Origin: Thermoanaerobaculales bacterium
GTDB taxonomy: Bacteria > Acidobacteriota > Thermoanaerobaculia > Thermoanaerobaculales > Sulfomarinibacteraceae
Direction of reading: 5' to 3'
DNA: 64,000 nucleotides
Assembly (NCBI GenBank): GCA_036351195.1
Contig: JAZBOQ010000126.1
Coordinates: 8,059-72,058, forward strand
The notes under the pieces are model-generated. The model made no database searches. It saw only the letters and a list, made by a program, of their open reading frames with translations, and was not told the origin of the DNA. Made by a program: the position numbers and the translations under genes. Shown here one piece after another: positions 19,843-49,897 of the stretch; the first letter of the stretch is position 1, and each line of letters opens with the position of its first letter.

Positions 19843-19853
19843 GGCACGCCTCC

Positions 19854-20022: not shown

Positions 20023-20049
20023 GGCCCGCCGGCGACGGCGGGCCTTTTC
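20023..20049 (+). terminator. Orphan plus-strand rho-independent terminator
   Basis: Stem GGCCCGCCG (20023-20031) / CGGCGGGCC (20036-20044) with loop GCGA, followed by TTTTC. No intact plus-strand gene lies upstream of it. Confidence 0.6.
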
Positions 20050-20085
20050 AATGCCCGCCGCCGTCACGGCCACGACGGAGGACAG

Positions 20086-24346: not shown

Positions 24347-24356
24347 GAGACGAGCC

Positions 24357-24420
24357 GTCAGCTCTCAGTTTTTCGTCGCAGGGCGGGCTAGCGATGGAGC
24401 TGATGGCTGATGGCTGATGG
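24357..24420. repeat. Periodic-arm element with (GCTGATG)x3
   Basis: CGTCAGCTCTCAGTTTTTCGTCGCA ... GCGATGGA(GCTGATG)x3, lying 10 nt after the TrpB2 stop. Confidence 0.55.
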
Positions 24421-24455
24421 CTTTCCGCGAACGACGTTGCCGTACACTGGGCCGT

Positions 24456-26478: not shown

Positions 26479-26629
26479 AATCGAACCGCAGAGGCGCAGA
26501 GAGCGCTGGGCGTCGCTGAGCATCACGTATTGACCCGGGCTCCTTTCATTCTTGAGAGGTAGGGCGCCTTGCGATGGGCTGAGTGACTCTGCGCATCCTC
26601 TGCGACCTCAGCGTCTCTGCGGTTTGATT
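26479..26629. repeat. Inverted repeat pair with CTCTGCG direct repeats
   Basis: AATCGAACCGCAGAG (26479-26493) is complementary at 14/15 positions to CTCTGCGGTTTGATT (26615-26629). CTCTGCG recurs at 26587, 26598 and 26615. Confidence 0.55.
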
Positions 26630-26685
26630 GTGCGCATCGGCTTGAATCCGCCTGAAACGGAGTCGAACGGTGTGCGGCGCGATCT

Positions 26686-35352: not shown

Positions 35353-35446
35353 CCCCGGGCACGGGCCCGGGGAGCCTCATGCCGTTCCGCGGCATGATTC
35401 TGGAACGTCGTTGTGGTACATACCCGGGCCGCAAGGAGGGCTCGAC

Positions 35447-37069
35447 ATGGAACGCCAACGCGCCGGACTCGACGACGAGACGCTCGGTTTCGTCCTGCAG
35501 ACTCTGAAGACGGTCAGCGAGCGCCGGCTCGACAAGGAGGCCCGCCTCCGCCTCGACGCAACCGACGAGTTTCCGGTGGACCTGGTCAATGAGATGCTCG
35601 GACCGGAGCTCGGCCTGCACCTGCTCTTCCTGCCCGAGGATGTGGGGGGCCTGGGCGGCGGCGGTCGCGACCTCTTCCGGGTCTCGGAAGAGATGGCCCG
35701 GACCGATCTCGGAGTCGCAACGGCTTTCCTCGCCATCGCCCTCGGCGTCGACCCCATCGTGGTCGGCGGGACGTCGGAGCAGAAGGAGCTCTGGCTCGGG
35801 CGCATCGCCGAGGAGGGGCTCATTGTCGCCTACGGCGTCACCGAGCCCGAGGCCGGCTCCAACGTGGCGAGCCTGAAAACGGAAGCCGTGCCGGTGGCCG
35901 ATGCCGATGGACGGGTCACGGCCTACCGCATCACGGGAGCCAAGCAGTTCATCACCAACGGCGGTGTGGCGCAGATCTACACCGTGTTGGCGCGGACGCC
36001 CAAGGGCCCGTCGTTCTTCGTGGTGGAGCGTGGGGCCGAAGGTTTTTCGGTGGGTGAGCCCGAGCACAAGCACGGCATCCGGGCCTCCAACACCACCAGC
36101 CTGACGCTGGAAGATGTCGAGGTCCCGGCCGAAAACCTCCTCGGGCTCGAGGAGGGCAAGGGGCTGGAGCAGGCCAACCAGGTCTTCGGCTTCACCCGTC
36201 TGATGGTGGCGGCCTTCGGGTTGGGCGCCGGCGAGGAGGCTCTGGAGCGGGCCGTGACCTACGCTCGGGAGCGCGTGCAGTTCGGCGAAACGCTGGCGGC
36301 GAAACAGGGCTTCAGCCACAAGCTCGTGGTGCCGCACGTGGTGCGCCTCGAGGCTGCCAGGGCCTACTGCGAGTGGGTGGCGGGGCGGCTCGACGATGGC
36401 GAACAGGGTCTCCAGGTGGAGGGGGCGGTGGCCAAGCTCTTCGCCTCGGAGGCGGGAAACGCCGCCGCAGATGCGGCGATGCAGGCGCACGGCGGCTACG
36501 GCTACACCCACGAGTACGAGGTGGAGAAGATCCGCCGCGACGTCCGCATCACCACCATCTACGAAGGAACCTCGGAAATACTCCAGAGCATCATCGGCAC
36601 CCACCGTTGGCGGACGACGGTCAAGACCAAGGGTGGTTTCTACCATGAGATGGCCTCCTCGCTGCGCGAGCTCGGTACCGGTGAAGCCGCCGCGGCGGCC
36701 GCCGACGCCATGGCGGAGACCATGCTCGCCGCCCACCGGAAACGGCTGCTGCGAGAGCAATGGTGTCTCTTCGAGTTGGCCAGAATGTCGGCCGAGGTGG
36801 AAACCGCGGTGGCATTGGCGCACAAGGCGGCGACCGAAATCGACGACCGCCATGGTTTCCTGATGGCCTGCGCCCGGCTCCACGGTGCTGCGGCGGCGCG
36901 TGAGGTGGCTGCCGGCGGTCTGAGGCTGCTCCGCGCCAGCGGCAGGTACGAAGAGTCGGAGATCGAGGCGTGGGCAACCGCGGTCTGCTTCGACGATCTT
37001 CTCAGGACTTCCGACGGCGAGTTGGAGCTGATGAACCAGGTTGCCGCCGCTGTCGCGTCCGCAACCTGA
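35447..37069 (+). CDS. Acyl-CoA dehydrogenase with a C-terminal extension
   Basis: Has YGVTEPEAGSNVASLKT, QFITNGGVA and YEGTSEI motifs. ATG 35447 lies after AAGGAGGG. Confidence 0.85.
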   Translation: MERQRAGLDDETLGFVLQTLKTVSERRLDKEARLRLDATDEFPVDLVNEMLGPELGLHLLFLPEDVGGLGGGGRDLFRVSEEMARTDLGVATAFLAIALGVDPIVVGGTSEQKELWLGRIAEEGLIVAYGVTEPEAGSNVASLKTEAVPVADADGRVTAYRITGAKQFITNGGVAQIYTVLARTPKGPSFFVVERGAEGFSVGEPEHKHGIRASNTTSLTLEDVEVPAENLLGLEEGKGLEQANQVFGFTRLMVAAFGLGAGEEALERAVTYARERVQFGETLAAKQGFSHKLVVPHVVRLEAARAYCEWVAGRLDDGEQGLQVEGAVAKLFASEAGNAAADAAMQAHGGYGYTHEYEVEKIRRDVRITTIYEGTSEILQSIIGTHRWRTTVKTKGGFYHEMASSLRELGTGEAAAAAADAMAETMLAAHRKRLLREQWCLFELARMSAEVETAVALAHKAATEIDDRHGFLMACARLHGAAAAREVAAGGLRLLRASGRYEESEIEAWATAVCFDDLLRTSDGELELMNQVAAAVASAT

Positions 37070-37070
37070 T

Positions 37071-37281
37071 TCAACTCTCAGTTCTTAGTTCTCAGTTTTC
37101 AGTTACATCGCAGGTGGTGGAGGATTCGAGGCTCTTGAGGGATTGAGGACCTCATCTCGGCCATGAGTCATGAGTTCCATCGCATGGAATCCTGAACGCT
37201 TGCGATTGAACTCAAAACTCAGAACTACCGCAATCGCCTCAACACCTGCGATGGAACTCAAAACTCAAAACTCATAACTCC
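37071..37281. repeat. Nested AT-rich periodic-arm hairpin element (best example of the family)
   Basis: The outer left arm, 37071-37112, is (..CTCAGTT/CTTAGTT/CTCAGTT/TTCAGTT)ACATCGCA. It pairs with the outer right arm, 37247-37281, TGCGATGGAACTCAAAACTCAAAACTCATAACTCC. The inner hairpin is 37162-37184 (CATGAGTCATGAGTTCCATCGCA) / 37201-37228 (TGCGATTGAACTCAAAACTCAGAACTAC). The element starts 2 nt after the dehydrogenase stop. Confidence 0.75.
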
Positions 37282-37330
37282 GACCACGGGATCGGCGTCA
37301 ACCCGCCAGGTTGACGCCGATCCCGTGGTC
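37282..37330. terminator. Perfect 20-bp inverted repeat overlapping the 3' end of the DUF2231 gene
   Basis: GACCACGGGATCGGCGTCAA (37282-37301) / TTGACGCCGATCCCGTGGTC (37311-37330) with a 9-nt loop. There is no T-tract, so the terminator role is uncertain. Confidence 0.4.
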
Positions 37331-37780
37331 GTAGACGAGCTGCCCGCCGTGATAGGCGGTGAGCACGAGCAGGAAGGCGGCTCCGAACGACAGGATCAGG
37401 GCCAAGAGTCGGAAGATCCCGATGTTGACCTCCAGGTCATGCCGGCCGAGCCAGGTCACGAAGAGCTTGAGGAGCAACGCGCCGCCCGCGACGCCGAGGG
37501 TGATCAGGGCGAGGTCTTCGTGCTCGGCGAGAATGCCCTGGGCGGCGCCGGTGACGGGGGCCGCCTTCTCGGCGGCGCGGTTGCCGGTGAGGAAGGCGGC
37601 GCCGAGTCCGGCGCTCCCGAGGATCAGCAGGGCCGATCCGGCGCGGTCGATCCAGACGAATCGGCGAAAGATCAGACAGGCGGCATCGAAGAGCGTCGAC
37701 ACCAGTAACAGAGCGATGGGGAAGTGGACCACCGCGGGGTGCAGGGCGATCGGCGTCATGGTGTCGAAAGTGATGGTCAT
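37298..37780 (-). CDS. DUF2231-like integral membrane protein
   Basis: 160 aa with 4 TM helices. The N-terminal LHPAVVHFPIALLLVSTLFD is typical of DUF2231. Confidence 0.7.
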   Translation of the reverse strand: MTITFDTMTPIALHPAVVHFPIALLLVSTLFDAACLIFRRFVWIDRAGSALLILGSAGLGAAFLTGNRAAEKAAPVTGAAQGILAEHEDLALITLGVAGGALLLKLFVTWLGRHDLEVNIGIFRLLALILSFGAAFLLVLTAYHGGQLVYDHGIGVNLAG

Positions 37781-37896
37781 GTGGCTCTCTCGTCCGGGGT
37801 CGCCGGGCGCCCGCGGGATCGACAGTGTACCTCACGACGACGGCGGCCCGGTGGGGCCGCCGTCACACGTCCAAGGTTGGCCGCAGCCGCGGTTGC

Positions 37897-39609
37897 TCAG
37901 CGGTCGCTGTTGACCACCGGCTCCGCGGGGCTGGTCACCACGTCTCTCGAGGCCGAGAAGCTCTCGAACTGAAGCCACTCGATGTCCTCCCAGAAGTCGT
38001 GGGGAGTCTTCTCGGGTGCGCCGGGATCGACGATCTTGACGTCGTGCCGGTCGAGCAGGGTCCCGGTGGCGACGTGGTACCCGACCATGGCCTTGCGATA
38101 CGCGAGGTGGGCCTGGATCAGGGTGAGCTGGGCGTTGGCCAGGTCCTCTTGGATCTGGGACAGCTGGTAGTTGGTGGACAGCCCGTTGTCGAACTTGGTC
38201 TGTTCGGCCTCGACGTTGCGCTCGGCGAGAACCACCGAAGCTTCGGCGGCGTCCACGTTGGCGGCGCCGTCGTAAAGTGCGCGCACGGCGAAGCGGACCT
38301 GGCGGGTGATCTCCTGCTTCAAAGCGGCAAGCTCGACGGCACCGCGGCGAGCCTCGTACCGCCGTTGGGCAAGCGTGGCCTTGGCGTCGTTGTTGCCGAT
38401 GGGCACCGAAAGGTTGAGTCCGACCGTCCAGTGCGGGAAGTCCCAGTCGCCCAGCTGGTCGTAGGCACCCCTGAAGCCGTCGCCGTCGATTTTCGTCTCC
38501 TCGCCGGTGTCGGGGTCCTCGATGATGGCGTCGCCGTCGACGCCGCCCCAGCCGTAGCTCGCTTCGAGGTCGAGGCTGGGAAGGGTCCGGTGGTGGGCCA
38601 TCTTTTCGTTGACGTCGAGCTGCTCGAGCTCGAGCAGCTTCTCGCGGATCTCGGGTCGCATCCGGTGGGCGGTCTCGATGGCCTCTCTCAGGTCGGGGGT
38701 GATCGGCTCGTAATCGTAGTTCTCGGTGGTGGTGATGGTCGTCATCCACTCCCTGGGATCGTCGAAGCCGAGCACGGCCTTGAGGGTGTCCTCGGCGTTG
38801 GACGCGGCGTTGCGTCGGGTGATCTGGTCCTGACGCCGGGTGGCGACAGTGGCCTCGGACTGGACGGTGTCGATGGGCGCCGAGGTGCCGACCTTGACCC
38901 GCTCTTCGGTTTCGGAGAGCAACTGCTCCGCCAGAGTGAGGCTCTGGTTGGCGACATCGATGGCGCGGCGAGCGGCCACCAGGTCCCAGTAGGCGTTTTC
39001 CACGTCACTGAGCGTGCTCACCACGGTCGCCTCGAAACCGGTTGCGGTGCGGTCGCGGCTGATCTCGGCGATGACGATTCCGGCTCTGTTGATGAGGGTG
39101 CCGAAACCGTCCAGAAGGGGTTGGCGCAGGCTCAGCGAGAGGTCGGCGTTGTAGTTCGGGTTGAGGAAGTAGAAGGTGGAGTTGGAGGCGTTGCGCAGCC
39201 CGCCGGTGGTCAGCTCGAGGTAGGTCCCGGTGGGAAGCAGCTGGTTGATACCGATGCCCATCTGGGTGCGTCGGCTCTCGGTGACCTCAGCGCCGTCGAG
39301 AAGTGTGGAGGACGGGCTGCGGGTGAAGCTGCCGTTGACCGAGGCGATGAAGTTGGGATCGAAGATCCCGGTGTTGGCGAAGATGTTCTCGTCGGCGGCG
39401 GCGATGGAGAAACGCCCCACCTGAAGGTTGAGATTGCGGTGCAGCGCGAGCTGGTAGGCTGCCTCGAGGTTGAGGTTCATTTCTTGCCCCGTGCTCGGCA
39501 GCCCGGGAATGTTCACCGGAAGGGCGGGCACCTCGAACTCGGCGGCATGGGCCGCGACGGTCAAGAGGCTCACTGCGGTGATGGTGAGAATCATCGCTCG
39601 GGTCTTCAT
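37897..39609 (-). CDS. TolC-family outer-membrane efflux protein
   Basis: Has a signal peptide (MKTRAMILTITAVSLLTVAAHA) and two tandem OEP repeats with the typical A..NL.LQ and ..A....L..A pattern. Confidence 0.85.
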   Translation of the reverse strand: MKTRAMILTITAVSLLTVAAHAAEFEVPALPVNIPGLPSTGQEMNLNLEAAYQLALHRNLNLQVGRFSIAAADENIFANTGIFDPNFIASVNGSFTRSPSSTLLDGAEVTESRRTQMGIGINQLLPTGTYLELTTGGLRNASNSTFYFLNPNYNADLSLSLRQPLLDGFGTLINRAGIVIAEISRDRTATGFEATVVSTLSDVENAYWDLVAARRAIDVANQSLTLAEQLLSETEERVKVGTSAPIDTVQSEATVATRRQDQITRRNAASNAEDTLKAVLGFDDPREWMTTITTTENYDYEPITPDLREAIETAHRMRPEIREKLLELEQLDVNEKMAHHRTLPSLDLEASYGWGGVDGDAIIEDPDTGEETKIDGDGFRGAYDQLGDWDFPHWTVGLNLSVPIGNNDAKATLAQRRYEARRGAVELAALKQEITRQVRFAVRALYDGAANVDAAEASVVLAERNVEAEQTKFDNGLSTNYQLSQIQEDLANAQLTLIQAHLAYRKAMVGYHVATGTLLDRHDVKIVDPGAPEKTPHDFWEDIEWLQFESFSASRDVVTSPAEPVVNSDR

Positions 39610-39774
39610 CGGCTGGCTCCTTTTCGGGTTTTCCCCGTTCGCCCTACTTTACGATGCCCCTCGAGAAAAGTTCGTTGAACTCGCAAAGGCGGCATCGGCG
39701 TCGGACGCTGATCATTATCCAATCAACGGAGGTCGTGCGAAAGAGTTACTCCCTCAAGAATTGCAAAGGAGCAC

Positions 39775-42192
39775 TCACAGCGTGCTCAGAGGATCGACGT
39801 CGATGGTGCGGCGGACGTTCTTTCCGACGCCGGGAGTTTCGGCGAGTTCGAGCATCGCACGCAGGGTCTCGCGGTTGCGGGCGCTGATGAGAACTTGCCA
39901 GCGCCATCGTTCGCGGATGCGTTCGATGGGTGATGGCGCCGGCCCGCGAATCCGCACCGAATCCGGAGGGTGGCCGATGGCGTTGACCGCAGCATCGGCC
40001 GCCCGCCGTGCTGCCGTCGCGCTTTTTGATTCGAAGCGGATCAGGGCGAGTCGGGCTGCCGGAGGATAGGCGAAGGCCTGCCGGAAGACGAGCTCTTCGT
40101 CGAGAAAGCTCGACACGTCGTGGCGGCACGCAAAGAGGACCGCGGGGTGGTCGGGGTAGTAGGTCTGAATGATGACGCGGCCCGGTAGGTCGCCTCTGCC
40201 GGCCCGGCCCGCCACCTGGGTGAGAAGTTGGAAGGTGCGCTCGCCGGAGCGGAAGTCCGGTAGATTGAGGAGAGCATCCGCCGAGATGACTCCGGTCAGG
40301 GTGACGCCGGGGAAGTGGTGGCCCTTGGCCACCATCTGGGTGCCCACCAGGACCTGCGCGCGGCCGGAGGCGAATCGGCCGAGGGCGGTTTCCAGGCCGT
40401 CGCGGCGGCGGACCGTGTCGCGGTCGAGAATCACCGAGTCGATGCCGGGGTGGAGTTGCCGGAGGTGGTGGGCCACCTTCTCGGTCCCGGCCCCGACCGG
40501 ATCCAGCAGTTCGCCGCCACAGGACGGACAGGTGGCGGGGATGGCCCGATGGTGGCCGCAGTAGTGGCACCTCAAATCGCCGCTGCGGCGGTGGACGACC
40601 ATGGCCACCGAACACGACGGGCAGTCAATGCGGTGGCCGCAGTCCCGGCACATGAGCACCGGGGCCCAACCTCGCCGCTGCATGAGCAGGATCGCCTGCT
40701 CGCCGCGCTCGATGGTTTCGGCCAGAGCGGTCTTGAGAGGCTGCGAGAAGAGGGTGCGGCCCTGCTCGCCCGCCTCGGGCGGTTCCTGCCGCAAATCGAC
40801 GAGCTCCACCTCGGGCAGCCGGTTCCCAGCAACCCGATGACGGAGCTCGAGCTTGGCGGCGAGCTTCCTCCGCACGAGGGCCTCGGCTTCGGCGGACGGG
40901 GTTGCCGAGCACAGGAGGACGGGCACTCCGGTGTCCCGGCCGAGGACCAGAGCCAGGTCGCGGGCGTGGTAGCGCGGCGCCTCCTGCTGCTTGTAGGCGC
41001 TGTCGTGCTCCTCGTCGACGACGATGAGACCGAGTTCGTCCAGGGGCGCGAAGAGTGCCGACCGCGGTCCGACCACGATGCGGGCCTCGCCGGCTCGAAG
41101 CCGCCGCCACTCCCGCCACCGGTCGCCGTCGGACTGGGCCGAGTGGAGCACCGCCGTCAGGCGGCCGAACCGCTGCGTCACCGCCCCCGCCGCGGCCGGC
41201 GTGAGACCGATTTCCGGGACCAGGACGATGCCGCCCTTGCCGGCGGCGAGCACCGTTTCGAGGCACCGCAGGTAGACCTCGGTCTTGCCCGACCCCGTGA
41301 CGCCGTGCAGCAGGAAGGGCGCGTACCCCCCCGCGTTGACCGCAGCGTCGACGGCCTTCACCGCCGTCCGCTGCTCGTCGGTCAGGCGGTGGCGCTCCGG
41401 GGAGGCGGAGAGCGTCCACAGCGCCCGGCCGGATTTGCGTTGGGTGAACTTCAGGATCACGCCCTTGGAGCTCATGGCGCGCAGGGTGGAGGGGGAGCAC
41501 CCGGTGGCGGTGGTGATGTCGCTGGCAAGAGCCGGGCGCGCTTCGGCGTTCAACCACTGGACGACCTGGCGCTGGCGAGGCGCCCGGCGGCACGCCTCGA
41601 GGAGCTCGTCAATTGGAAGGTCGGCGAGACGGTAGGCGGTGACGTCGACGTGGGGAGCGCGGTCGCGGCGCCGTCGTCGGATCCGGAGCCAACCCCTGTC
41701 CGCCGCCCCTTCCAACGCCGAGCGGCCGGAGACTCCCGCGCGGGAGAGCAGGGTCGGCACCTTGAGCTTTCGGCTCTCGCGGAGGACGTTGAGGAGGGCG
41801 GACACATCGGCATCGGCTGCGTCGAGGTCGAGTCCCGCGCCCGCGGGCGTCAGCTCGGCCTCCTCGGCGTCGGCGCGGAAGAGGCGGGCCGGGATCATGG
41901 CGGCGAGGGTGGTCCCCAGCGGGCAACGGTAATGGGTGGCGACGAACGCCGCGGTTTCCATCAATCGCTGGGGGAGGAGGGGCGCGTCGTCCAGCACCTC
42001 CTCGATCGGCCGCAGCGAATCCGTGTCCAGATCCGTCGTATTCGTGATCCCGACGACGACACCGGTGGCGAAACGATTCCGCAGAGGCACCCGAACCCGG
42101 ACCCCGGGGACGGTGAAGGGCATCAGCTCTTCCGGGACCTGATAGGTCAGAGGCTCGGGAGCGCTTTTCGGCACGGCGACATCGGCGAACAC
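39775..42192 (-). CDS. priA: Primosomal protein N' (replication restart helicase PriA)
   Basis: Has Walker A LLHGVTGSGKTEVY, DEEHD, and the Cys-rich zinc region CRDCGHRIDCPSCSVAMVVHRRSGDLRCHYCGH...CPSCGG. GTG start. Confidence 0.9.
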   Translation of the reverse strand: MFADVAVPKSAPEPLTYQVPEELMPFTVPGVRVRVPLRNRFATGVVVGITNTTDLDTDSLRPIEEVLDDAPLLPQRLMETAAFVATHYRCPLGTTLAAMIPARLFRADAEEAELTPAGAGLDLDAADADVSALLNVLRESRKLKVPTLLSRAGVSGRSALEGAADRGWLRIRRRRRDRAPHVDVTAYRLADLPIDELLEACRRAPRQRQVVQWLNAEARPALASDITTATGCSPSTLRAMSSKGVILKFTQRKSGRALWTLSASPERHRLTDEQRTAVKAVDAAVNAGGYAPFLLHGVTGSGKTEVYLRCLETVLAAGKGGIVLVPEIGLTPAAAGAVTQRFGRLTAVLHSAQSDGDRWREWRRLRAGEARIVVGPRSALFAPLDELGLIVVDEEHDSAYKQQEAPRYHARDLALVLGRDTGVPVLLCSATPSAEAEALVRRKLAAKLELRHRVAGNRLPEVELVDLRQEPPEAGEQGRTLFSQPLKTALAETIERGEQAILLMQRRGWAPVLMCRDCGHRIDCPSCSVAMVVHRRSGDLRCHYCGHHRAIPATCPSCGGELLDPVGAGTEKVAHHLRQLHPGIDSVILDRDTVRRRDGLETALGRFASGRAQVLVGTQMVAKGHHFPGVTLTGVISADALLNLPDFRSGERTFQLLTQVAGRAGRGDLPGRVIIQTYYPDHPAVLFACRHDVSSFLDEELVFRQAFAYPPAARLALIRFESKSATAARRAADAAVNAIGHPPDSVRIRGPAPSPIERIRERWRWQVLISARNRETLRAMLELAETPGVGKNVRRTIDVDPLSTL

Positions 42193-42396
42193 GACTGTAA
42201 TTATGAATGATGAATGATGAATGGTGGATTATTTCCATGGCGGGTTCCGATGTGGCCGGGTTGTGGCCCGTATCCGATGAGGTCTGCCAGGTGGGCCTTG
42301 GCCCACCAGATCGCCCTGCGGGTCAGGGAGCCACGTCATCGGGCACGGGTACGGGTACGGGTACGGGTACGGGGTGCTGCGATACACTTTCGGCAG
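42193..42396. repeat. Divergent priA/ATL intergenic mosaic (21-mer, REP, GGGTAC array)
   Basis: Contains ATTATGAATGATGAATGATGA (42200-42220), REP GGTGGGCCTTGGCCCACC (42290-42307), and six GGG runs of a (GGGTAC)n array (42341-42374) followed by TGCGAT. Confidence 0.8.
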
Positions 42397-42789
42397 ATGG
42401 GTCATGCAAAGGGAACCACGCGCGTTCACGGAGACCTGGAAGGCGACCCGGTCTCGGTTCGCGATGAGGTCTTCGCCGTCGTGAGGTCGATTCCTCGTGG
42501 CTCGGTGATGACCTACGGTCAGATCTCAGCCTGCCTCGGCTCGCGGATTTCGCCGTTGGCGGTGGGGTGGATGCTCCACCGCTGTCCGGACGGTGTTCCC
42601 TGGCACCGGGTGGTCAATGCCTCGGGTGGCTGCTCCACCGAACGACTTCCGGATCTTCCGGGGGGACTGCAGCGGTCCATGCTCGAAAACGAGGGCGTGA
42701 GCTTCTCCCTCGCCGGCAACCTCGATCTCGATCGGTACCGGTGGCGGCCGCCACCGGCCGAGGTCCCGGACGCGGCCTGGGATCGGTGA
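42397..42789 (+). CDS. Alkyltransferase-like (ATL) protein: MGMT DNA-binding domain with Trp replacing the acceptor Cys
   Basis: Has VMTYGQISACLGSRISPLAVGWML....VPWHRVVNASGG, where the canonical PCHRV is PWHRV. The start is taken at ATG 42397; the upstream part of the track ORF crosses repeats. Confidence 0.75.
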   Translation: MGHAKGTTRVHGDLEGDPVSVRDEVFAVVRSIPRGSVMTYGQISACLGSRISPLAVGWMLHRCPDGVPWHRVVNASGGCSTERLPDLPGGLQRSMLENEGVSFSLAGNLDLDRYRWRPPPAEVPDAAWDR

Positions 42790-42862
42790 GCGATCACCCT
42801 CCGGCGAGGCCACCGTGCAGTCAATTCTCCGAGCCTTGCCACGAGGTTAAACCCTTAGCTTT

Positions 42863-43155
42863 GGATCATCCCGCAAATGCCGGGATGATCCCAAGTTCTG
42901 ATTTCTCAGTTTTTCGTTCTTAGTTATCATCGCAAGGAACGGTGCGGCGATGAATGCGGGGCCGGTTCAACCAGGAGCGCCAGCGGCACAAACAGATTCA
43001 GCCGGTGACAGCCGGCGCCGTGACGCCTGCGATGACTGCGATGAAACTCATAACTCAAAACTCATAACTCAAAACTCAGGTTCATCCCGCCATTTGCGTG
43101 ATGAACCTTAACCCTTAACCCTTCACCCTCAACTCTTGCCCTCAAACCTCCAACC
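42863..43155. repeat. MITE-like composite: hairpin TIRs flanking a periodic-arm element, then a (CCTTAAC)n array
   Basis: The left TIR is 42863-42891 (GGATCATCCCGCAAATGCCGGGATGATCC). The right TIR, 43079-43107, matches it at 25/29 positions when reverse-complemented. The AT-rich arms are 42895-42934 (…GTTCTTAGTTATCATCGCA) and 43028-43080 (TGCGATGACTGCGATGAAACTCATAACTCAAAACTCATAACTCAAAACTCAGG). A heptamer array at 43106-43154 runs into the last codons of mqnA. Confidence 0.7.
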
Positions 43156-43945
43156 CATCGCTCGCATGAAGCCTCAACGGGCGCTGCTTCTCGATCACTC
43201 CACACTCGCGGCACAGCCGCCAGAACTCCTCCATGGCGGCACGCTCTTCCGACCCGAGGCCGTACTGGAGATTGCGGCTGAGGTAGCGCGCGGCCAGGTC
43301 TTCCGGCCATCCTCCCGGGGCGGCATGCCGGACCGCGATCTCGGCGATCCGTCGTCCGTTGTCGCGGCGGACCCGGTCGAGGAGTGCCGGCGCGTCGCCG
43401 AGGTCGCTGCCGCCGCAGGTCATCCAGGTGGCGAAGACGAACGGGCGGCCGGTGAGCTCCTTCCAGGCGGCGCCGAGATCCAGTCGGTGGGGGAAGCCGT
43501 CGGAGTCCGGAGGGTGGGTAATGACCTTGTCACCGATGAGCAGCAGAGCGTCCGGATCGGATCGACCCGGTCCGCGATCCAGGGGGCGGAGCGTCGGCCG
43601 GATTCCGTAACGTCGGGAAAGGACGACTGACAGCAGGGCCACCGAGGTGTGGCTGTCGCCATCGACGGCGATCTCGCCGATGTCGTCGATGGGTGTGCGG
43701 CTGAAGAGCTTGACGGTGAGGGCGGGTCCGTTGCAGCCGATGGCGCCGGCCGGAACGATCTCCAGTGGGCACGTCGAGCGCTGATAATCGATGGTCGGGC
43801 ACAGCGCGATCGCGGCGTCGCCCGCTTCGAGGGTCTCGAGCAGCCGGCTGGGGACGCGGCGGATGAGCTCGATCCCGGCGCGGTGCTCGAGCCCGTCGAT
43901 GAGCGGACGGGCGTTGAGGTAGCTGACGGTGGCGATCCTGGTCAT
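43142..43945 (-). CDS. mqnA: Chorismate dehydratase (futalosine-pathway menaquinone biosynthesis, MqnA family)
   Basis: MTRIATVSYLNARPLIDGLE...PSRLLETLEAGDAAIALCPTIDY matches the MqnA/VitK2_biosynth pattern. The start is taken at ATG 43945, not the track's 44215. Confidence 0.75.
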   Translation of the reverse strand: MTRIATVSYLNARPLIDGLEHRAGIELIRRVPSRLLETLEAGDAAIALCPTIDYQRSTCPLEIVPAGAIGCNGPALTVKLFSRTPIDDIGEIAVDGDSHTSVALLSVVLSRRYGIRPTLRPLDRGPGRSDPDALLLIGDKVITHPPDSDGFPHRLDLGAAWKELTGRPFVFATWMTCGGSDLGDAPALLDRVRRDNGRRIAEIAVRHAAPGGWPEDLAARYLSRNLQYGLGSEERAAMEEFWRLCRECGVIEKQRPLRLHASDGLEV

Positions 43946-44404
43946 GGTGGCGAGTCTCCCGCGGCGTGGGCTCGGCGGGCGGCCGAGGCGAGTCGGCGGA
44001 GTGTACCACCGCGGATTGCAGACGTTGTGGTGTCGGAATTCCGAACAGCTGTACGGGTTTCCGGTCACGCCGGTGGGGCCGCTGATGTAAATCCGGCTGG
44101 GCCGGCGGCGGACACGATTTTCGACATCCTGGTTAAGTGATGTTTTTTGAGTCAGTTCGTCGGGATGGATTGTAAAAGTTGCTGCCCCGGGGCGCCGCTG
44201 GCTCGAAAGGTGCACCCACCAGAGGATAGTATTGAGTGGTGAAAGGAGGCCGTGGGATCACGAAAAGGGCGTCGGCCGGCGATGAAGGCCGTCGAAAACG
44301 GCGGAAACGGAGTCGGGTTTCCTGCTCAGCAGTTGACATTCCTGCGAGGAAATTCGATGATGCATCGATGGTTTCGAGCCCGCAAAGGGCCTCGCGGCCG
44401 TTTC

Positions 44405-44432
44405 GGTCGCCCGGAGGGGGCGGTCATTTTTT
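44405..44432 (+). promoter_or_regulatory. Terminator-like hairpin plus T6 in the 5' leader of the TonB receptor gene (possible attenuator)
   Basis: GGTCGCCC (44405-44412) / GGGCGGTC (44418-44425) is an 8-bp stem with two G-U pairs and loop GGAGG. T6 follows at 44427-44432, directly before SD AGGAGG (44434-44439). A candidate promoter is TTGACA at 44333-44338 and GATGAT at 44356-44361. Confidence 0.3.
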
Positions 44433-44444
44433 CAGGAGGTGAGC

Positions 44445-47330
44445 ATGGTTCGTAGAACAATCGCTGCAATGTGTCTCGTGGTGCTGATCGCCGGCGTGGC
44501 ATCGGCCGCAACCACCAGCCGACTCAAAGGTGAAGTCGCCGACAACGATGGCGTGCCCATGCCGGGTGTGACCATCCAGATCTCCTCCGACAAGCTGATC
44601 GGTGGTCCTCAGATCGCCATCGCCGACGGCAACGGAGCATTTGTATTCAATCTGCTTCCGGTGGGCACCTACACCGTCCAGGCGACCCTGGCCGGGTTCC
44701 AGCCGGTGACCGGCGAGGTTCAGGTCAGCCTGGGCCGGACGGCGGAGATCCTCTTCCAGATGATTCCGGAGACCTTCGGTGAAACAATCGAAGTGTCGGC
44801 CCAGGTGCCGGTGGTGGACACCACCCAGGTCAACACGTCGGTCACCTTCGACGAGGACTATCTCCAGAAGGCGGCGGTGGGCTCGGCCAACCGCGACTAC
44901 CTCAGTATGATCGGCCAGGCCGCGGGCGTCGCCGGCACCGGCAATGCCAGCGTCTTCGGCGGGTCCGACGGCGACAACTCCTACCTCATCGACGGTCTCA
45001 ACACCACCGACCCGGTGACGGGGACCTTCGGCACCAACTTCAACTACGACGCCGTGCAGGAGATGAACTTCCAGACCGGCGGCTTCGAGGCCGAGTTCGG
45101 CCAGGCCACCGGCGGCATCGTCAACCTGGTGACCAAGTCCGGTGGTAACGAGTTCTCGGGCTCTTTCGACGCGCGCTACCGCAACCAGAACATGACCGAG
45201 AACGGCGACTACTACGACCGGGACGAGCAGGAAACCCTCTACCAGAGCCTGTCCGCTACCCTGGGTGGCCCGATCCTGCGCGACCGCCTCTGGTTCTTCG
45301 CCTCGCTGCAGAAGGAAGACAGCGACCGCCAGAACGCCGGCGCCCTCTTCCCCCGCGAGTGGGAAGGGCTGAACTACATCGGCAAGCTGACCTGGCAGAT
45401 CGCCGACAGCCACCGCGCCGTGCTGAAGTACACGGGCGCTCCGGCGGACATTTACGGCACCAACTCCAGTCAGTTCGTCGATCCCACGGCCCGCAACGTC
45501 CAGTTCCAGGGCTCGGACATCTGGCAGGCCGAGTTGAACTCGGTGCTCTCCGAGTCGGTGCTCCTCAACGCCGCCGTCGGCCTCTTCGCCAACGACATCG
45601 ACGTCGAGGCGGCCAACGGCGACACCGTCCGCAGCGGCCACCGGATCGAGCAGAGCGGCCAGGACCCGTACGACTACAACAACTTCCTCTACTCGTCCCT
45701 GAACCGCCGCTACCGTGACGAGATCCGCCTCAACACCACCATGTTCGTCGACGAGTTCGCCGGCGCGCACGAGTTCAAGGTCGGCGCCGAGTACTCGGAC
45801 ATGGAGTTCAACTACAACTTCTTCTACAACGGCGGCGGTTTCATTCACGACAACTACGACCTGAGCGAGGACTACGACTACCAGGACATCAACGGCGACG
45901 GCTACTTCAACTACTACGTCCTTGTCGAAGAGCCCTTCGAGACCGCCAAGGACTGGGAGAACTCCTACGGCGACATCACCACCTTCTACGTGCAGGACGC
46001 CTGGCGGCCCCACCCCAACCTCACCCTGAAGCCCGGTATCCGCTTCGACAACGTGACGCTGGACAACCACATCGGCGAGCAGATCGCTGACATGGACCGC
46101 TGGCAGCCGCGCTTCGGTATCGCCTGGGACATCGCCGGCAACTCCAAGTACGTGCTCCGCGGCTCCGCCGGCCGTTTCATGGATCCGACGGCGCTGTCGG
46201 TGGCGAGCTTCGCGTCGGGCCTCGTCCAGACCTACCGCGAGTACAACATCCTCGAGTTCTACTGCAACTCGACCCGTGGACGCCTCTGCTCCCCGGACTC
46301 TCCTTTCCCGCCGTCGTACGGCGACCCCTTCCCGTGGGTCAACGACGAGGGATTCCAGTACTACCTCTTCGACAACCGGGGTCAGGCCGACATCTACGAG
46401 CCGGCCCAGACTCTCGACCAAGCTGGATTGGGTACGCTGGAAACGCCCTACGCCGACGAGTACATTCTCGCCTTCGAGACCCAGATTGCCCGCGACACCT
46501 CCATCGAGCTCACCTACGTCAACAAGAAGACCAAGAACATCATCGAGGACACCTGCGCCAACAACACCTGGGCCTGGGGCGACGGCGAGTACCCGGACCT
46601 GGACGACACCTCGACCTGGACCACCGCCGGTGAGTGCGGCTTCTACATGATCACCAACATGCCCACCTTCTACCGCGACTACGAGGGTCTGATCCTCTCG
46701 GCGGAGACCCGCCGCGAGCGGCTCCACCTGCTCTTCAGCTACACCTACTCCGAGTCCGAAGGCAACACGCCCAACGGTGCGTCCGACTCCTACGCGACGG
46801 CGCTGGCCGATTTCTACCCGGTGCACTTCTACAACACCGACGGCTACATGCCCGACCACCGCGAGCACCGCGTGAAGCTCAACGGCTACTACCTGCTGCC
46901 GCACAACTGGACCATCGGCTTCGACGGCTTCTTCTCGTCGGCCGGCCACCAGACCGTGTTCTCGACCTGCGAGAATCTCCAGGCGGCCGACCCCAACGAT
47001 CCGCTCTTCGCGGAGCTGGGGATCACCCAGGCCGAGGTGCTGCCCTACTGCAGCACCGGCGACGGCGCCTTCCTGGGCACCACCGACATCTTCCTCTCGC
47101 CGCGTGGTGACTACGAGACCAAGTCCACCTGGCAGCTCGACGTTCAGGGCTCCAAGACGTGGAACCTGAACAAGTTCGACATCACCGCCGTGCTGACGGT
47201 CTACAACCTCTTCGATCGCGAGCTCGACCTCGCGTTCAACACCGAGGCCTTCATCGGCACCGATGTCGGCGAGCCGCTCTCCTATCGCCTGCCGCGGCGC
47301 TACGAGATCGGTCTCCGGATCGAGTTCTGA
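44445..47330 (+). CDS. TonB-dependent receptor with an N-terminal carboxypeptidase-regulatory-like domain
   Basis: Has a signal peptide (…VLIAGVASAA), a CarboxypepD_reg pattern (LKGEVADNDGVPMPGVTIQISS...DGNGAFVFNLLPVGTYTVQATLAGFQP), a plug and barrel, and a terminal ...GLRIEF. Confidence 0.85.
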   Translation: MVRRTIAAMCLVVLIAGVASAATTSRLKGEVADNDGVPMPGVTIQISSDKLIGGPQIAIADGNGAFVFNLLPVGTYTVQATLAGFQPVTGEVQVSLGRTAEILFQMIPETFGETIEVSAQVPVVDTTQVNTSVTFDEDYLQKAAVGSANRDYLSMIGQAAGVAGTGNASVFGGSDGDNSYLIDGLNTTDPVTGTFGTNFNYDAVQEMNFQTGGFEAEFGQATGGIVNLVTKSGGNEFSGSFDARYRNQNMTENGDYYDRDEQETLYQSLSATLGGPILRDRLWFFASLQKEDSDRQNAGALFPREWEGLNYIGKLTWQIADSHRAVLKYTGAPADIYGTNSSQFVDPTARNVQFQGSDIWQAELNSVLSESVLLNAAVGLFANDIDVEAANGDTVRSGHRIEQSGQDPYDYNNFLYSSLNRRYRDEIRLNTTMFVDEFAGAHEFKVGAEYSDMEFNYNFFYNGGGFIHDNYDLSEDYDYQDINGDGYFNYYVLVEEPFETAKDWENSYGDITTFYVQDAWRPHPNLTLKPGIRFDNVTLDNHIGEQIADMDRWQPRFGIAWDIAGNSKYVLRGSAGRFMDPTALSVASFASGLVQTYREYNILEFYCNSTRGRLCSPDSPFPPSYGDPFPWVNDEGFQYYLFDNRGQADIYEPAQTLDQAGLGTLETPYADEYILAFETQIARDTSIELTYVNKKTKNIIEDTCANNTWAWGDGEYPDLDDTSTWTTAGECGFYMITNMPTFYRDYEGLILSAETRRERLHLLFSYTYSESEGNTPNGASDSYATALADFYPVHFYNTDGYMPDHREHRVKLNGYYLLPHNWTIGFDGFFSSAGHQTVFSTCENLQAADPNDPLFAELGITQAEVLPYCSTGDGAFLGTTDIFLSPRGDYETKSTWQLDVQGSKTWNLNKFDITAVLTVYNLFDRELDLAFNTEAFIGTDVGEPLSYRLPRRYEIGLRIEF

Positions 47331-47354
47331 TCGGATCGGGTTCTACAACCTCAA

Positions 47355-47389
47355 CGGCCCGCGCCTTCCGGCGCGGGCCGTTTTCTTTG
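47355..47389 (+). terminator. Rho-independent terminator of the TonB receptor gene
   Basis: An 11-bp GC stem, CGGCCCGCGCC (47355-47365) / GGCGCGGGCCG (47370-47380), with loop TTCC, followed by TTTTCTTTG. Confidence 0.8.
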
Positions 47390-47390
47390 A

Positions 47391-47500
47391 AGTGAGAAAG
47401 AAAGAAAGTGAGAAGGTGAGAAAGTCAGAGGGTGTTTCCCGATAGACCTTCTAACCTTCTAACCCTCTAGCCTTCTAACTTCCTAACTCTCTAACTCTTC
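47391..47500. repeat. Purine-rich / pyrimidine-rich 8-nt periodic-arm element
   Basis: The left arm reads AGTGAGAA AGAAAGAA AGTGAGAA GGTGAGAA AGTCAGAG. The right arm, 47447-47500, reads ACCTTCTA ACCTTCTA ACCCTCTA GCCTTCTA ACTTCCTA ACTCTCTA ACTCTTC. The last unit overlaps the stop and final codons of the minus-strand gene 47491..48924. Confidence 0.65.
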
Positions 47501-48924
47501 TCTCCAACGTCATGCGGCATGGAGCCACGCTTTGCCCTGAGGTACGCGAACGGGGTCGCGTGGAGGAAGTTGGAAACCCGCGAGGTGTAGATGTCCGCCG
47601 AACGCTCCACCTGGCGGGCGAGGTGGCTGAAGTCGTATCCCGAGCGCATGGGAGTGCCCCAACGGGGGTTGTAGGCCCGGGCGCTCTGCCGCGCCAGCGG
47701 TGCGATCCTCTCGTCCAGAGCCACCATCTGCTCCCACGCCGCGTCGAGCTCTGCAGTGACCTCGGCGGGCGGGTGCTGGGGTTGTGGCCCGTACCCTTCT
47801 TTCGCCCGCTGCAGCTCCAGGCGCGCCGTACGGTGGCGTTCTTCCAGCGCCTCCTTGTCCGCCATCAACGCGGACAGCTCGCGCTCCACCGGCGCTATGG
47901 CCTCGATGGCCTCGATCTCCTCTTCGAGCTCTCTCAGGATCAGGGCGGTTCGCCAGCGAAGACTGGCTTTGGACATGCGGACGTCGGCGAAGACGTGATC
48001 CCCGACGTAGAGAATCTGCGACCCGGAGAGGCCGAGGTAGCCCTCGACGCGGGCGGCGTCGCCCCCGAGGTAGATCCCCGGGCCGGGAATGGCGCCGGGG
48101 ACCGGCGTCAGCAGCCCCTGCTCCTCGTCAGCCACCGAGAAGAGCGGAAGCCGGTCGGTGAAGAACGACGGCTTGCGGGCGCTGACGATCACCAGCTCGA
48201 AAAGGTCGCGCCAGGTGAGGCCTTCCGGCTCGAGGTAGGGATCGAAGGCGAACGCCATGATCTCTCGGGCGTACTCCCACTCGGCGTTGGAGATCAGCAT
48301 CAGCCGCTTGCCGGACCGCTGCTGGTCGAGCAGGGCCAGCGGCGCCAACGGGTCGAGGTCGATGAACCGGGCCGGATCGGCGGTGATCTCGGCCTTCAGG
48401 GTGCCTTCCAGGTGAGCCTCGTCCATGCGGCTGCGGACCTTCCGGAAGAGATCTTCATAGCCGACAACTCCGGTCAACCGGCCCTCGTCGAAGAGGTCGA
48501 CGAGCTGTGAGTACAGGCAGGTTTCGGACAGAGAGAAGAGGGTGTTGACGAAGATGAAGCGGGGGTCCGAGAGCTGCACCGGGGTGTGGCGGTAGATGTT
48601 GCGCTGCTCGGCGAAGTCCAGCATCCGGGTGCCGTGGGCGGCGCGCAGGACATAACCGAAACGGTTGGCCTTGACGATGTTGCCGAGCCCGGCGTCGACA
48701 ATGAGGCCGCGGATCACCGAGCCGGCGTCGAAGGAGAGGTCTTCCACCGGCCATCCATCCGACGCCAGGAGGTCCCGCAGACGGGCGTAGGCGCGTTCTT
48801 CCCACGTCCGCACGCGGTAGTGGACGAGGGTGTAGTCCATGTCGTATCCGATGGCGCCGATGGAGCGCAGGTTCAGCGTGCGATTGGCGAAGATCCGGCG
48901 GGCAAAGGGGGTTTCGTTCGGCAT
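47491..48924 (-). CDS. HAD-superfamily 5'-nucleotidase-domain protein (cytosolic 5'-nucleotidase II-like) with a coiled-coil tail
   Basis: IFANRTLNLRSIGAIGYDMDYTLVHY carries HAD motif I, DxDxT, in the cN-II context. Also has a later YVGDHVFADV motif and a C-terminal Glu/Ala/Leu-rich helical region. Confidence 0.8.
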   Translation of the reverse strand: MPNETPFARRIFANRTLNLRSIGAIGYDMDYTLVHYRVRTWEERAYARLRDLLASDGWPVEDLSFDAGSVIRGLIVDAGLGNIVKANRFGYVLRAAHGTRMLDFAEQRNIYRHTPVQLSDPRFIFVNTLFSLSETCLYSQLVDLFDEGRLTGVVGYEDLFRKVRSRMDEAHLEGTLKAEITADPARFIDLDPLAPLALLDQQRSGKRLMLISNAEWEYAREIMAFAFDPYLEPEGLTWRDLFELVIVSARKPSFFTDRLPLFSVADEEQGLLTPVPGAIPGPGIYLGGDAARVEGYLGLSGSQILYVGDHVFADVRMSKASLRWRTALILRELEEEIEAIEAIAPVERELSALMADKEALEERHRTARLELQRAKEGYGPQPQHPPAEVTAELDAAWEQMVALDERIAPLARQSARAYNPRWGTPMRSGYDFSHLARQVERSADIYTSRVSNFLHATPFAYLRAKRGSMPHDVGEKS

Positions 48925-49897
48925 GGTCGACTCCGATCGCGTGTTTCGGCTTCCGAGAGCTTAACCCATGCCGGGCTCAGGGGAATCGAAGGTCGCACTG
49001 CGATGTGGACCGCCGAGCCCCAGCTCGGCATTGAGTCGTGGTGGGGATCCGGTGCGTGGTCGATGTGAAGCGTCTACGGGTGGAGCAGCCTCCACGTCAT
49101 CGCACGGACCTCGTCGAAGAGGTCGAGGGCCTTCTCAGCGACTACCCACCGCGTGTGAAACACCAGGAGGCAACCGTGCGTGGCCACATCCACGCGAGTT
49201 CGTCGCGGTTTGCCACTGCCATCCGGCTTCACTCGCTCCGCGAGCTACGCCGTGACGAGCTGCCACCTGGTCGCGGCGTAGCCGAAGGCGAAGCCGGATG
49301 ACTCTGCCTCTCCCACTGATACTGCCGCTGTCGCTGTATTCGGGATCGGGAACGGGATCGTTTCGAGCCCGGACCCGGACGCTGTCTCTGCCACTGCGCG
49401 CCGTCGTCTGCCAGGTAGGGTGGGCCTTGGCCCACCGAGGGTTCCAGAGCCGCGGTTCGACACCAGGAGGCGATCCGGTGGGCCAAGGCCCACCCTACGG
49501 CGCTGCAGTTCCCAGCGCGCTCCGCTTCCGCATTCTGGGCTGCCAGGTTGGGTGGAGCTCGCCCCACCGAGGGTGCCTGTCGGCGTGGTCGCGTCACCGG
49601 ATCTTGCCCCCAGCCCCGGCCTCCTGACCCGCATCCGCCTTATCGGCGGAAGCGGGTCAGCGTCGTCCGCTCGGCACGGTCATTTGAGGAACGAGGATGC
49701 GGTGACCGTGCCGAGCGAACGCCGTCGGCCTGCCTCGGTACCGGAACAACGGCTTTCAACGGCTGGGCACGGGATCGCCACGTTCACACTTTTCGAAGCG
49801 CGAAGAGAGCTTGAACAGCCTGGAGGTGAAAAGTGTGAACATGGCACGTCCGCCGGTGGCGCGCTGGGGCGCTCGGGCTGGAGAGGCGGTCAGGGGA
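48925..49897. repeat. Mosaic repeat cluster B (973-bp gene-free interval)
   Basis: The modules are as follows. GCCGAGCCCCAGCTCGGCATTGAGTCGTGGTGGGGATCCGGTGCG (49012-49056) has a homolog at 57418-57462. A GGGATC/GGGAAC array lies at 49342-49356. An inverted REP doublet lies at 49419-49436 / 49477-49494, with a REP variant at 49550-49568. The long hairpin has its stem at 49664-49681 / 49704-49721. The GGCACGTCC module lies at 49843-49881. Confidence 0.8.

Follow-up and report, generated by a model that had tools for sequence, protein, structure and literature searches.

Tandem arrays of 7-bp units, the STRR, TAACTGA and TTCAAAA repeats, have been known in several phyla since 1990, and to our knowledge neither a function nor a reader has been assigned to them. 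The STRR heptamers of filamentous cyanobacteria occur in inverted arrays that could fold into hairpins, for example in the spacer between hupS and hupL; proposals for their function, which is unknown, include transcript stability, translational coupling and termination (PMC2670836). The TAACTGA repeats of marine Beggiatoaceae, Cyanobacteria and Bacteroidetes lie in forward orientation a few nucleotides before start codons, and a protein that binds them has been proposed, not identified (PMC4679880). Here we describe heptamer arrays in a 64,000-nucleotide stretch of DNA (the window) from Thermoanaerobaculales bacterium (Sulfomarinibacteraceae; assembly GCA_036351195.1, contig JAZBOQ010000126.1, positions 8,059-72,058 of the forward strand), with an element at 37073-37283 (element D) as the reported example. 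We show that these arrays belong to a family of intergenic quasi-palindromes that is clade-specific (Thermoanaerobaculia, Acidobacteriota) and persists by vertical descent. The family is genuine, is kept across related species and is under sequence constraint; its function is not established.

The building block of the family is a half-site, in which an array of heptads runs into a heptameric core. Alignment of 221 half-sites on the core gives the consensus (T-n-A-r-T-T-n)x5 followed by CATCGCA, with four to six heptads in each. The heptad register is strict and without indels to position -35, the T, A, R, T and T positions standing at 0.7-0.88 in the matrix of the 221 half-sites, and a weakly conserved R-N3-Y-Y-C lies 3' of the core. 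A+T arrays are found 5' of 162 of the 367 intergenic cores (44%) and 3' of four, compared with 3.5% of random intergenic positions. An original prediction made from the letters of the window had taken CATCGCA/TGCGATG to be an enriched anchor, and this stands: in addition to the family-wide association with arrays, the window holds 22 copies of CATCGCA where shuffled sequence gives 12.0±3.3, none of 100 shuffles reaches 22, and about 15 of the 22 copies lie outside genes according to our own gene calls.

Two half-sites placed head-to-head make up the canonical element of about 100-125 bp, and the cores occur in the order CATCGCA..TGCGATG 68 times and in the reverse order twice. The sequence between the cores is unconstrained, but the length of this spacer falls into two classes, 17±1 and 28±2 nt. 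Spacers of the genome sample group around 17 and 28 nt, and an independent metagenome sample shows the same two classes: among 126 elements, the spacer is 16-19 nt in 64 (exactly 17 in 44), 20-25 nt in one and 26-30 nt in 52. The two classes are about 11 bp apart, which is near one helical turn. Spacer composition is strand-symmetric, with a purine at +1 and Y-Y-C at +5 to +7, and neither sample shows base-pair covariation within the spacers. An apparent avoidance of pairing at spacer positions 1-4 (n=21) was dropped, as the metagenome sample (n=44) did not reproduce it. The core can also recur in tandem with a period of 8-9, and tandem cores are present at loci L088 and L072.

Element D shows this anatomy with a longer interior. 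Its 5' arm (37073-37105; TCAACTC, TCAGTTC, TTAGTTC, TCAGTTT, TCAGTTA) begins 3 nt past the TGA of an acyl-CoA dehydrogenase gene (35411-37069) and leads into the left core CATCGCA (37106-37112, + strand). A 134-nt interior (37113-37246) separates this from the right core, TGCGATG as read on the + strand (37247-37253), and the 3' arm follows (37254-37283; GAACTCA, AAACTCA, AAACTCA, TAACTCC). The interior holds a smaller nested foldback (37163-37227), in which a mini-array (CATGAGT, CATGAGT, TC) precedes an inner core CATCGCA at 37178-84, and a 16-nt spacer, TGCGAT at 37201-06 and the array GAACTCAAAACTCAGAACTA come after it. The region 37068-37285 has a predicted folding energy of -75.3 kcal/mol as RNA (z -4.6) and -43.2 kcal/mol as DNA (z -6.2). 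Immediately beyond, a 22-bp G+C hairpin (37282-37330) spans the stop and last ~10 codons of a convergent DUF2231 gene (37298-37780, - strand), so placed that on the - strand the U-rich arm of element D directly follows it. This hairpin is kept in three species with compensatory changes (GACCACGGGATCGGCGTCAACC / GATCACGGGATCGGGGTCAACC / GACCACGGTGTGGGTGTCAGCC; L001 11800-11850, L002 3235-3280). Syntenic relatives of the locus, fetched via proteins and not via the repeat pattern and hence unbiased toward the repeat, have this architecture at the corresponding position: the stop codon is followed by heptads and CATCGCA, then by an interior (93 or 196 nt) of unrelated sequence, and finally by TGCGATG, a second set of heptads and the G+C hairpin. 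Homologs of the acyl-CoA dehydrogenase at 84-93% identity carry the labels 'Ca. Sulfomarinibacteraceae', Thermoanaerobaculales and Holophagae; exact searches with three proteins of the window gave no match.

The elements are not confined to the window: at least 106 genome stretches (pattern scan, one genome per species) and at least 120 metagenome stretches (contig scan, with the pattern anchored on the opposite half) match. Nearly all of the genome matches listed lie in about 15 metagenome-assembled genomes (MAGs) of Acidobacteriota, and the roughly six elsewhere are chance matches. The carriers of the heptad-array family are MAGs of Acidobacteriota/Thermoanaerobaculia, 'Ca. Sulfomarinibacteraceae' among them, plus sediment metagenomes, and a scan of viral contigs gave no match to the pattern. 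A more distant acidobacterial locus, reached via P0085 (present on 87 contigs), is non-syntenic and lacks the arrays, and is usable solely as a negative control. Rfam covariance models gave no match at the gathering score in the window, and the sole match overlapping any element in an E-value search was BTnc231 on element F, at 31 bits against a cut-off of 80.4. Neither the family nor the CATCGCA core motif is described in the literature searched. Two sets of MAGs, DATHSO (L007, L021, L025 and others, labelled Methylomirabilota) and CAZONX (L089, labelled Acidimicrobiaceae), contain the same repeat family in synteny with Thermoanaerobaculia loci, and their labels conflict with the content of the contigs. 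The family may serve in such cases as a lineage marker or as a detector of mis-binning.

Comparison of 44 orthologous element pairs among the loci shows which parts of the element endure. Of 21 orthologous sites that had not been chosen by the search pattern and whose flanks are 76-89% identical, 15 keep an exact left core and 11 an exact right core, compared with an exact core in 3.4% of random 130-nt windows. The spacers at orthologous sites are usually unalignable or inverted. Between species, the site, the cores and the architecture of an element stay, while its unit types, its spacer sequence and the direction of its centre change. The centre is inverted relative to the flanks in four clear cases among the 44 pairs (L006/L009, L022/L026, L083/L099 and L109/L103) and less clearly in L007/L013; in the metagenome sample L147/L203 is likewise inverted. 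Between L142 and L166 the spacer is 89% identical and both arms have been swapped to other unit types. Presence itself differs between species, as L106 has a plain 19-bp hairpin at the site where L047 holds an element. Genomes differ in their fraction of units with R=A (ATT- as opposed to GTT-type), which ranges from 0.04 to 0.96; the window stands at 0.16. This genome-specific usage indicates that arrays evolve in concert within a genome, and also indicates a trans-acting reader.

Other features of the family concern its history. The spacer motifs GGGWTCCTGGGAGC and GATGCTCAG are common to non-orthologous elements, a hint of past duplicative spread, and nested or half-duplicated copies occur at 37163-37227 in the window and at L103. 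No near-identical non-orthologous copies (arms plus spacer) were seen among the matches, so that recent transposition is not evident, and neither a target-site duplication nor an autonomous partner was seen. As a separate observation, the 140-nt interiors of L010 (4435-4638) and L058 (5383-5597) are ~93% identical in two species, far above other interiors, and this interior is a candidate structured RNA or protein-binding insert.

The original prediction held that at least eight intergenic sites of the window carry hairpin elements whose arms pair imperfectly. Low-GC arrays of period 7 or 8 are indeed present at all eight according to Tandem Repeats Finder, and six of them are foldbacks, with fold z-scores of about -2 to -6; in addition to element D these include 18063-18172 (element B; z -4.1 on the + strand, -4.4 on the - strand), 24350-24425 (element C; -4.3 and -2.2) and 47388-47505 (element F; -2.1 and -3.2). 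The other two, at 42200-42224 and 61941-61979, are solo half-elements just before start codons; their partner arm is absent and they are unstructured (z +1.1 and +0.7). Arm complementarity is 76% within an element and 68% between unrelated elements, and the two variable (N) positions per heptad pair at 0.43-0.55 compared with 0.30-0.39 expected. Among 47 co-directional elements there is no advantage in stability for the sense strand (22 versus 25, mean difference -0.3 kcal/mol) and no excess of G·U over A·C mismatches (23 versus 30). An advantage of the sense-strand fold at window elements A, C and F, considered as a sign of RNA selection, was gone in these 47 oriented elements. We infer that arm pairing itself is not the conserved property and that hairpin potential is a by-product.

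The elements occupy the gaps between genes and mostly begin at the stop codon, as judged with a crude GC3-based gene caller on which all gene-boundary statistics rest. The outer neighbour is a stop codon for 138 of 248 arrays, at a median distance of 3 nt and with 49% within -20..+2 nt, and a gene start for 87 of 248, at a median of 51 nt. The 98 paired elements include 47 in co-directional, 25 in convergent and 9 in divergent spacers, which does not differ significantly from background spacers of at least 90 nt (154/74/56). In several convergent gene pairs the element is the entire spacer. In four species an element separates the ATPase gene of one ABC-transporter operon from the permease gene and is 13-16 nt away from the next start codon; conserved in such a position, the elements cannot be efficient terminators there. 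On both strands the T/U-rich arm is 5' of the G+C core stem and the A-rich arm 3' of it, which is the reverse of an intrinsic terminator. The elements are not called by a consensus scan for intrinsic terminators, and the core stem leads into the A-rich arm. A strong G+C hairpin directly before the U-rich arm is present at 13-26% of stop-side arrays, compared with 0-3% of start-side arrays and 2% at random, and elements D and E are examples in the window.

Consensus scans of 12000-25000 and 36500-48500 found canonical promoters and terminators at chance level. The sole strong canonical intrinsic terminator in these regions is that of a + strand gene just before element F (47353-47382; 13-bp stem with 11 G·C pairs, followed by a T tract). 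An outward sigma-70 promoter (TTGCGA + CATAAT) was rejected, as CATAAT-like hexamers lie at spacings of 7, 14 or 21 nt and the consensus scan was empty. Separately, TACAAT/TAGAAT hexamers, sometimes with TGn, occur 6 nt before ATG downstream of elements in L021 (4559), L097 (3221), L046 (2955), L108 (3476) and L095 (7545). They suggest leaderless mRNAs with core promoters directly 3' of the A-rich arm, which would then be in the position of an UP element.

These data bear on a possible but doubtful alternative, a REP/BIME-like form of the predicted insulator, in which the element acts at the RNA level as a boundary hairpin. The element would be part of the upstream gene's transcript, and its arms would pair into a long A·U stem with the G+C core as its cap. 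This structure would block 3' exonucleases, attenuate read-through or offer an RNase III site, and stops in all frames would catch ribosomes reading through. Such a role has been proposed for the STRR hairpins between hupS and hupL (PMC2670836), and it is consistent with folds far more stable than those of shuffles, with the position of 49% of stop-side arrays at -20..+2 nt of the stop, with the elements that fill a whole convergent spacer, with the G+C hairpin plus U-rich arm enriched at stop sides, with the plain hairpin that replaces the element in L106 and with canonical terminators at chance level in the window. All three frames are closed in 52% of arms compared with 19% of composition-matched shuffles, which agrees with the predicted three-frame stop closure; however, the opposite strand is closed equally often (51%), and the left arm of element D closes one frame only. 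The absence of a sense advantage or a G·U bias in the 47 co-directional elements also speaks against an RNA hairpin, although frequent inversion of the centre could erase strand signatures. Moreover, N positions pair about half the time, the two arms can become non-complementary unit types, the polarity is opposite to that of an intrinsic terminator, elements are kept inside the ABC-transporter operon, and the solo half-elements are unstructured. The idea that these elements are combined transcription/translation insulators finds no positive support here, in view of the same observations: equal frame closure on both strands, no sense-strand fold or G·U bias, ~50% pairing at variable positions, reverse terminator polarity and conservation inside that operon.

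Rather unlikely is a selfish or neutral palindromic satellite, which would have spread in the ancestor of the clade in the manner of a REPIN or foldback element and would be maintained by gene conversion, template switching and slippage without serving the host, the abutment of arrays to genes reflecting insertion into short spacers. The nested or half-duplicated copies and tandem cores (37163-37227, L103, L088, L072), presence/absence differences, shared spacer motifs (GGGWTCCTGGGAGC/GATGCTCAG), inverted centres, genome-specific unit spectra and the lack of a preferred intergenic type are as expected of a satellite. However, near-identical non-orthologous copies, target-site duplications and an autonomous partner were not seen, viral contigs gave 0 matches, and core and heptads are retained where all else has turned over, which needs constraint or a drive that reads the sequence. 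The inverted centres (four clear cases in 44 ortholog pairs, the weaker L007/L013, and L147/L203) raise the question of an invertible switch, in which the mirror arms would be recombination sites and a flip of the centre would toggle a promoter or a protein-binding asymmetry. We regard this as very improbable: most centres are 17-28 bp, too short for invertase synapsis, no promoter is recognisable, the inversions are seen between species only, and template switching across the hairpin suffices to explain them. We give still less credence to a signal for biased DNA uptake, which would keep CATCGCA identical and place inverted pairs after genes as do the DNA uptake sequences and uptake signal sequences (DUS/USS). 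Such a signal would account for an invariant short motif, intergenic enrichment and inverted pairs at gene ends, but seven bases are too few for specificity, the motif is scarcely enriched inside genes, unlike USS/DUS, and the phased heptads and quantised spacing are left unexplained.

We tentatively favour, well short of conviction, a boundary repeat of REP/BIME type, in which a sequence-specific protein would read the phase-locked heptads and the core, and hairpin potential would be a by-product. The register, the core and the fixed mirror distance persist while pairing and strand do not, which argues for a protein reader; the use of the same core by a second, octad family (see below) also speaks for this view. 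The half-site would be the recognition platform of a putative sequence-specific nucleic-acid-binding protein, which may read the heptads one by one after nucleating at the core, as ribbon-helix-helix (RHH) proteins do on 7-8-bp iterons or REP-associated transposase does on REP. The functional unit would be a symmetric complex of fixed geometry at gene boundaries, a form of 'genomic punctuation'. The foldback potential that comes with mirror symmetry would give rise to flip-flop inversion of the centre and, in transcripts, to a hairpin of REP type; the U-rich arm could also act as a terminator tail for a G+C hairpin that lies ahead of the element. A more far-reaching version, which we consider speculative and on balance unlikely, is a dedicated punctuation system in which the protein nucleates at CATCGCA, polymerises on T-N-A-R-T-T-N arrays and forms complexes over 17- and 28-bp spacers at about one in five intergenic regions, its specificity co-evolving with the arrays of each genome; related machinery would then read the AAYTNAN heptads of Cyanobacteria, Beggiatoaceae and Bacteroidetes.

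Several points weigh against a protein-read boundary repeat. In the 8-kb blocks examined, neither a gene for a binding protein or a transposase nor any other partner gene came to light. The helical-turn reading of 17 versus 28 nt is post hoc, and the classes could be two subfamilies by descent, as spacer class is partly genome-specific. Stop-codon abutment, the G+C hairpin with U-rich arm at stop sides and the plain hairpin of L106 point toward RNA. Flip-flop of the centre could wipe out strand asymmetry, which would weaken the arguments from fold strand and from G·U versus A·C, and the conservation of the core could stem from molecular drive rather than host benefit.

The family gives heptamer arrays a fixed anatomy of invariant core, strict register and quantised spacer. 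With hundreds of orthologous copies across species, constraint becomes separable from drift, and the elements offer a concrete bait for finding a protein reader. If the punctuation system were true, the role of the STRR and TAACTGA repeats would be directly testable. The elements also account for MAG assemblies that break at gene boundaries, and they should be masked or modelled in predictions of terminators, promoters and small RNAs in Acidobacteriota.

The remaining elements of the window are flanked, as is element D, by ordinary metabolic genes. Their arms are A+T-rich as predicted, with a GC content of 0.24-0.40 (0.235 family-wide) compared with 0.65 overall, and the predicted abutment of left arms to the stops of the SDR, thiolase and acyl-CoA dehydrogenase genes is confirmed with an offset of 0-3 nt. 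The arrays found by Tandem Repeats Finder are at 12931-64, 13046-91, 18066-98, 18137-68, 24399-422, 37076-104, 37255-80, 42199-223, 43044-78, 47390-434, 47446-501 and 61944-70. The inner ends had been described as very often CATCGCA on the left and TGCGATG on the right; the core is enriched and several exact pairs exist, but element F is coreless and element B has a left core only. Exact cores are at 18099, 37106, 37178, 37247 (-), 42928, 43028 (-), 43037 (-) and 61973, and variant cores are TATCGCA (12969), TTCGATG (13054), CGTCGCA (24374) and AGCGATG (24390). Elements A, B and C lie between co-directional genes and D, E and F between convergent genes, while the solo half-element H is in a divergent context and the solo half-element I in a co-directional one.

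Element A (12928-13092) lies between an SDR gene (stop 12927) and a KAS III gene (start 13124). It consists of a 5' arm (TTATGAG)x5, the core TATCGCA (12969-75), a right core TTCGATG (13054-60) within (GTTCGAG)n, and a 3' arm (ATTCATC)n (13066-92), and it has an ortholog in L064. Element B (18066-18168) is placed between a thiolase gene, whose stop TAG is inside the first unit, and an alpha/beta hydrolase gene; a 5' arm (18066-98), core CATCGCA (18099-105) and 3' arm (18136-68) are present and the right core is absent, while the ortholog in L064 has both cores. Element C (24353-24422), between a PLP-enzyme gene and an MFS-acyltransferase gene, is a short variant with cores CGTCGCA (24374-80) and AGCGATG (24390-96), a 9-nt spacer and a right arm (GCTGATG)n. 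Element E (42894-43080), between a convergent MGMT-like gene (+ strand) and an mqnA-like gene (- strand), has a 5' arm (42894-927), a core (42928-34), a 93-nt interior, tandem right cores (43028-34 and 43037-43) and a 3' arm (43044-80). It is flanked on both sides by G+C hairpins (42863-91 and 43079-107) that are inverted copies of one another. Beside it lies a (CCTTAAC)n array (43106-43149) that extends over the 3' end of the mqnA-like gene and has a unit type unlike the family consensus. Element F (47390-47501) is a coreless octad variant (AAGTGAGA / ACCTTCTA) that starts at the stop of a 5'-nucleotidase gene (47491-48924, - strand).

The two solo half-elements are both on the - strand. Half-element H (42199-42223) reads (ATTCATC)n ATAATT, 6 nt ahead of the priA start codon, and in L001 the orthologous element is complete, both cores being present. 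Half-element I (61941-61979) consists of TGCGATG followed by GAATTCATAAATCATCATTCATCATTCATAATCGAATC, which runs into the ATG of an MgtC/DUF4010 gene.

A second family uses the same CATCGCA/TGCGATG core with 8-nt arm units (CGCAGAGR / CGCAAAGG) and a conserved interior (..TTGACCCGGGCTCC..). Copies of this octad family are found in L074 (6229), L080 (5700), L048 (6844) and L013 (5248), and a degenerate copy is present in the window at about 26480-26640, with octad-type arms GCAGAG/CTCTGC, the interior ..ATTGACCCGGGCTCC.. and TGCGATG at 26570. G+C-type arrays adjoin 5-6% of intergenic cores compared with 2% at random, and the core seems to associate with tandem arrays of several kinds. Hexamer arrays on the opposite side of the core were also noted in the window, where CATCGCA is followed by (CGGGAG)n at 22806-22845 and (CGGGTA)n is followed by TGCGATA at 42340-42385. 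In L067 (3638-3884), L102 (739-961) and L093 (1766-1994), the two cores of elements that are normal in other respects are separated by 150-190 nt of A+T-rich sequence without repeats, and at these loci the element centre appears to accept foreign sequence. A GC-rich repeat of ~300 nt, which formed the 'mosaic clusters' noted earlier, occurs in the window at 22371-22643 and 49541-49874 and in L001 at 9517-9874, between QRPTase and acyl-CoA dehydrogenase genes. It contains the palindrome GGTAGGGTGGGCCTTGGCCCACC, further copies of which lie near 22395 and near 42285 and, as a pair in inverted orientation, at 49414-49499. An Rfam match to mir-3923 at the latter position is spurious, being sub-threshold, present on both strands and caused by the inverted palindrome pair.

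Among known systems, resemblances to HIP1 (GCGATCGC), attC cores, the consensus sites of IHF, Fur and H-NS and the -35 element of extracytoplasmic function (ECF) promoters were judged coincidental, as were those to the RN|WUU motif of RNase E and to NAG-N4 repeats of the HutP type; not one of these accommodates every unit type. Integron attC sites are rejected, the cores being CATCGCA/TGCGATG and not RYYYAAC/GTTRRRY and the flanks syntenic housekeeping genes. MITEs are rejected because the conserved part is at the inner ends, the outer ends vary in length, and the spacers of non-orthologous copies differ except for short motifs; inspection by eye, with no formal test, found no flanking direct repeats around the elements. 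Invertons have both orientations within a population and an invertase; the inversions observed here are between species. Eukaryotic foldback (FB) transposons have inverted arms of short tandem repeats with variable copy number and centre; their arms are kilobases long and their outer termini conserved, whereas this family is conserved at the inner ends. RHH proteins, such as the omega repressor of pSM19035 and MetJ on its metboxes, read contiguous spacerless 7-8-bp iterons in direct or inverted orientation. As in the present family, the consensus of the unit is conserved and not pairing, which makes them a model for the reading of phase-locked heptads; however, they act at a few plasmid or regulon operators, whereas the present elements number in the hundreds and lie at gene boundaries, and a protein of this kind is not known here.

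In genomic behaviour the closest relatives are the REP, BIME and REPIN sequences, which are abundant intergenic palindromic head-to-head dimers with lineage-specific classes and vertical persistence (PMC3733652, PMC3116915, PMC3337134). The present family shares with the REP type its high copy number, intergenic location and predominantly head-to-head dimers; REP dimer spacers may likewise hold their length while the sequence changes, and sites after stops, inside operons and between convergent genes are common to both. Acidobacteria encode tyrosine transposases flanked by terminal inverted repeats (PMC3733652). The original prediction, which did not recognise the architecture among described REP, BIME, ERIC or MITE families, is upheld by sequence and anatomy, although it overlooked the described relatives, STRR and TAACTGA/TTCAAAA. 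The unpaired GTAG/CGTC tag that REP units have at one end is absent, and the base 5' of the core stem is the R-T-T-N of the array; a CGTCGCA core variant exists, but its CGTC lies within the stem and is not a tag. Moreover, the REP unit is a short stem-loop of 20-40 bp with a conserved stem and a loop of 2-20 nt, whereas here a conserved 7-bp stem with a free loop of 17 or 28 nt is joined to arms made of tandem arrays.

The TAACTGA unit fits the 3'-arm consensus N-A-A-Y-T-N-A, and the solo arrays 42199-223 and 61941-79, like the arm 13066-92, have a similar placement before start codons. However, the TAACTGA repeats are nearly all direct (one indirect set in 170), consist of two to six copies of one unit, are coreless and occur in A+T-richer genomes (PMC4679880), whereas the units described here are degenerate and mostly within inverted pairs with a core. 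The STRR sequences are the nearest described relatives, with tandem 7-bp intergenic units in inverted, hairpin-capable arrays between co-transcribed genes or at 3' ends, and the Nostoc units TTTTGAA/TTCAAAA (10.1101/2022.06.06.494920) are of the same class as ATTTTGA/AATTCAA of this family. They differ in host, being from Cyanobacteria rather than from Acidobacteriota with 65% G+C, and neither the phase-locking of arrays to an invariant G+C core nor the 17/28-nt pairing is present in the published STRR descriptions found. What is new here is the occurrence in this phylum and in a G+C-rich host, together with an invariant core, a strict heptad register and a quantised spacer.

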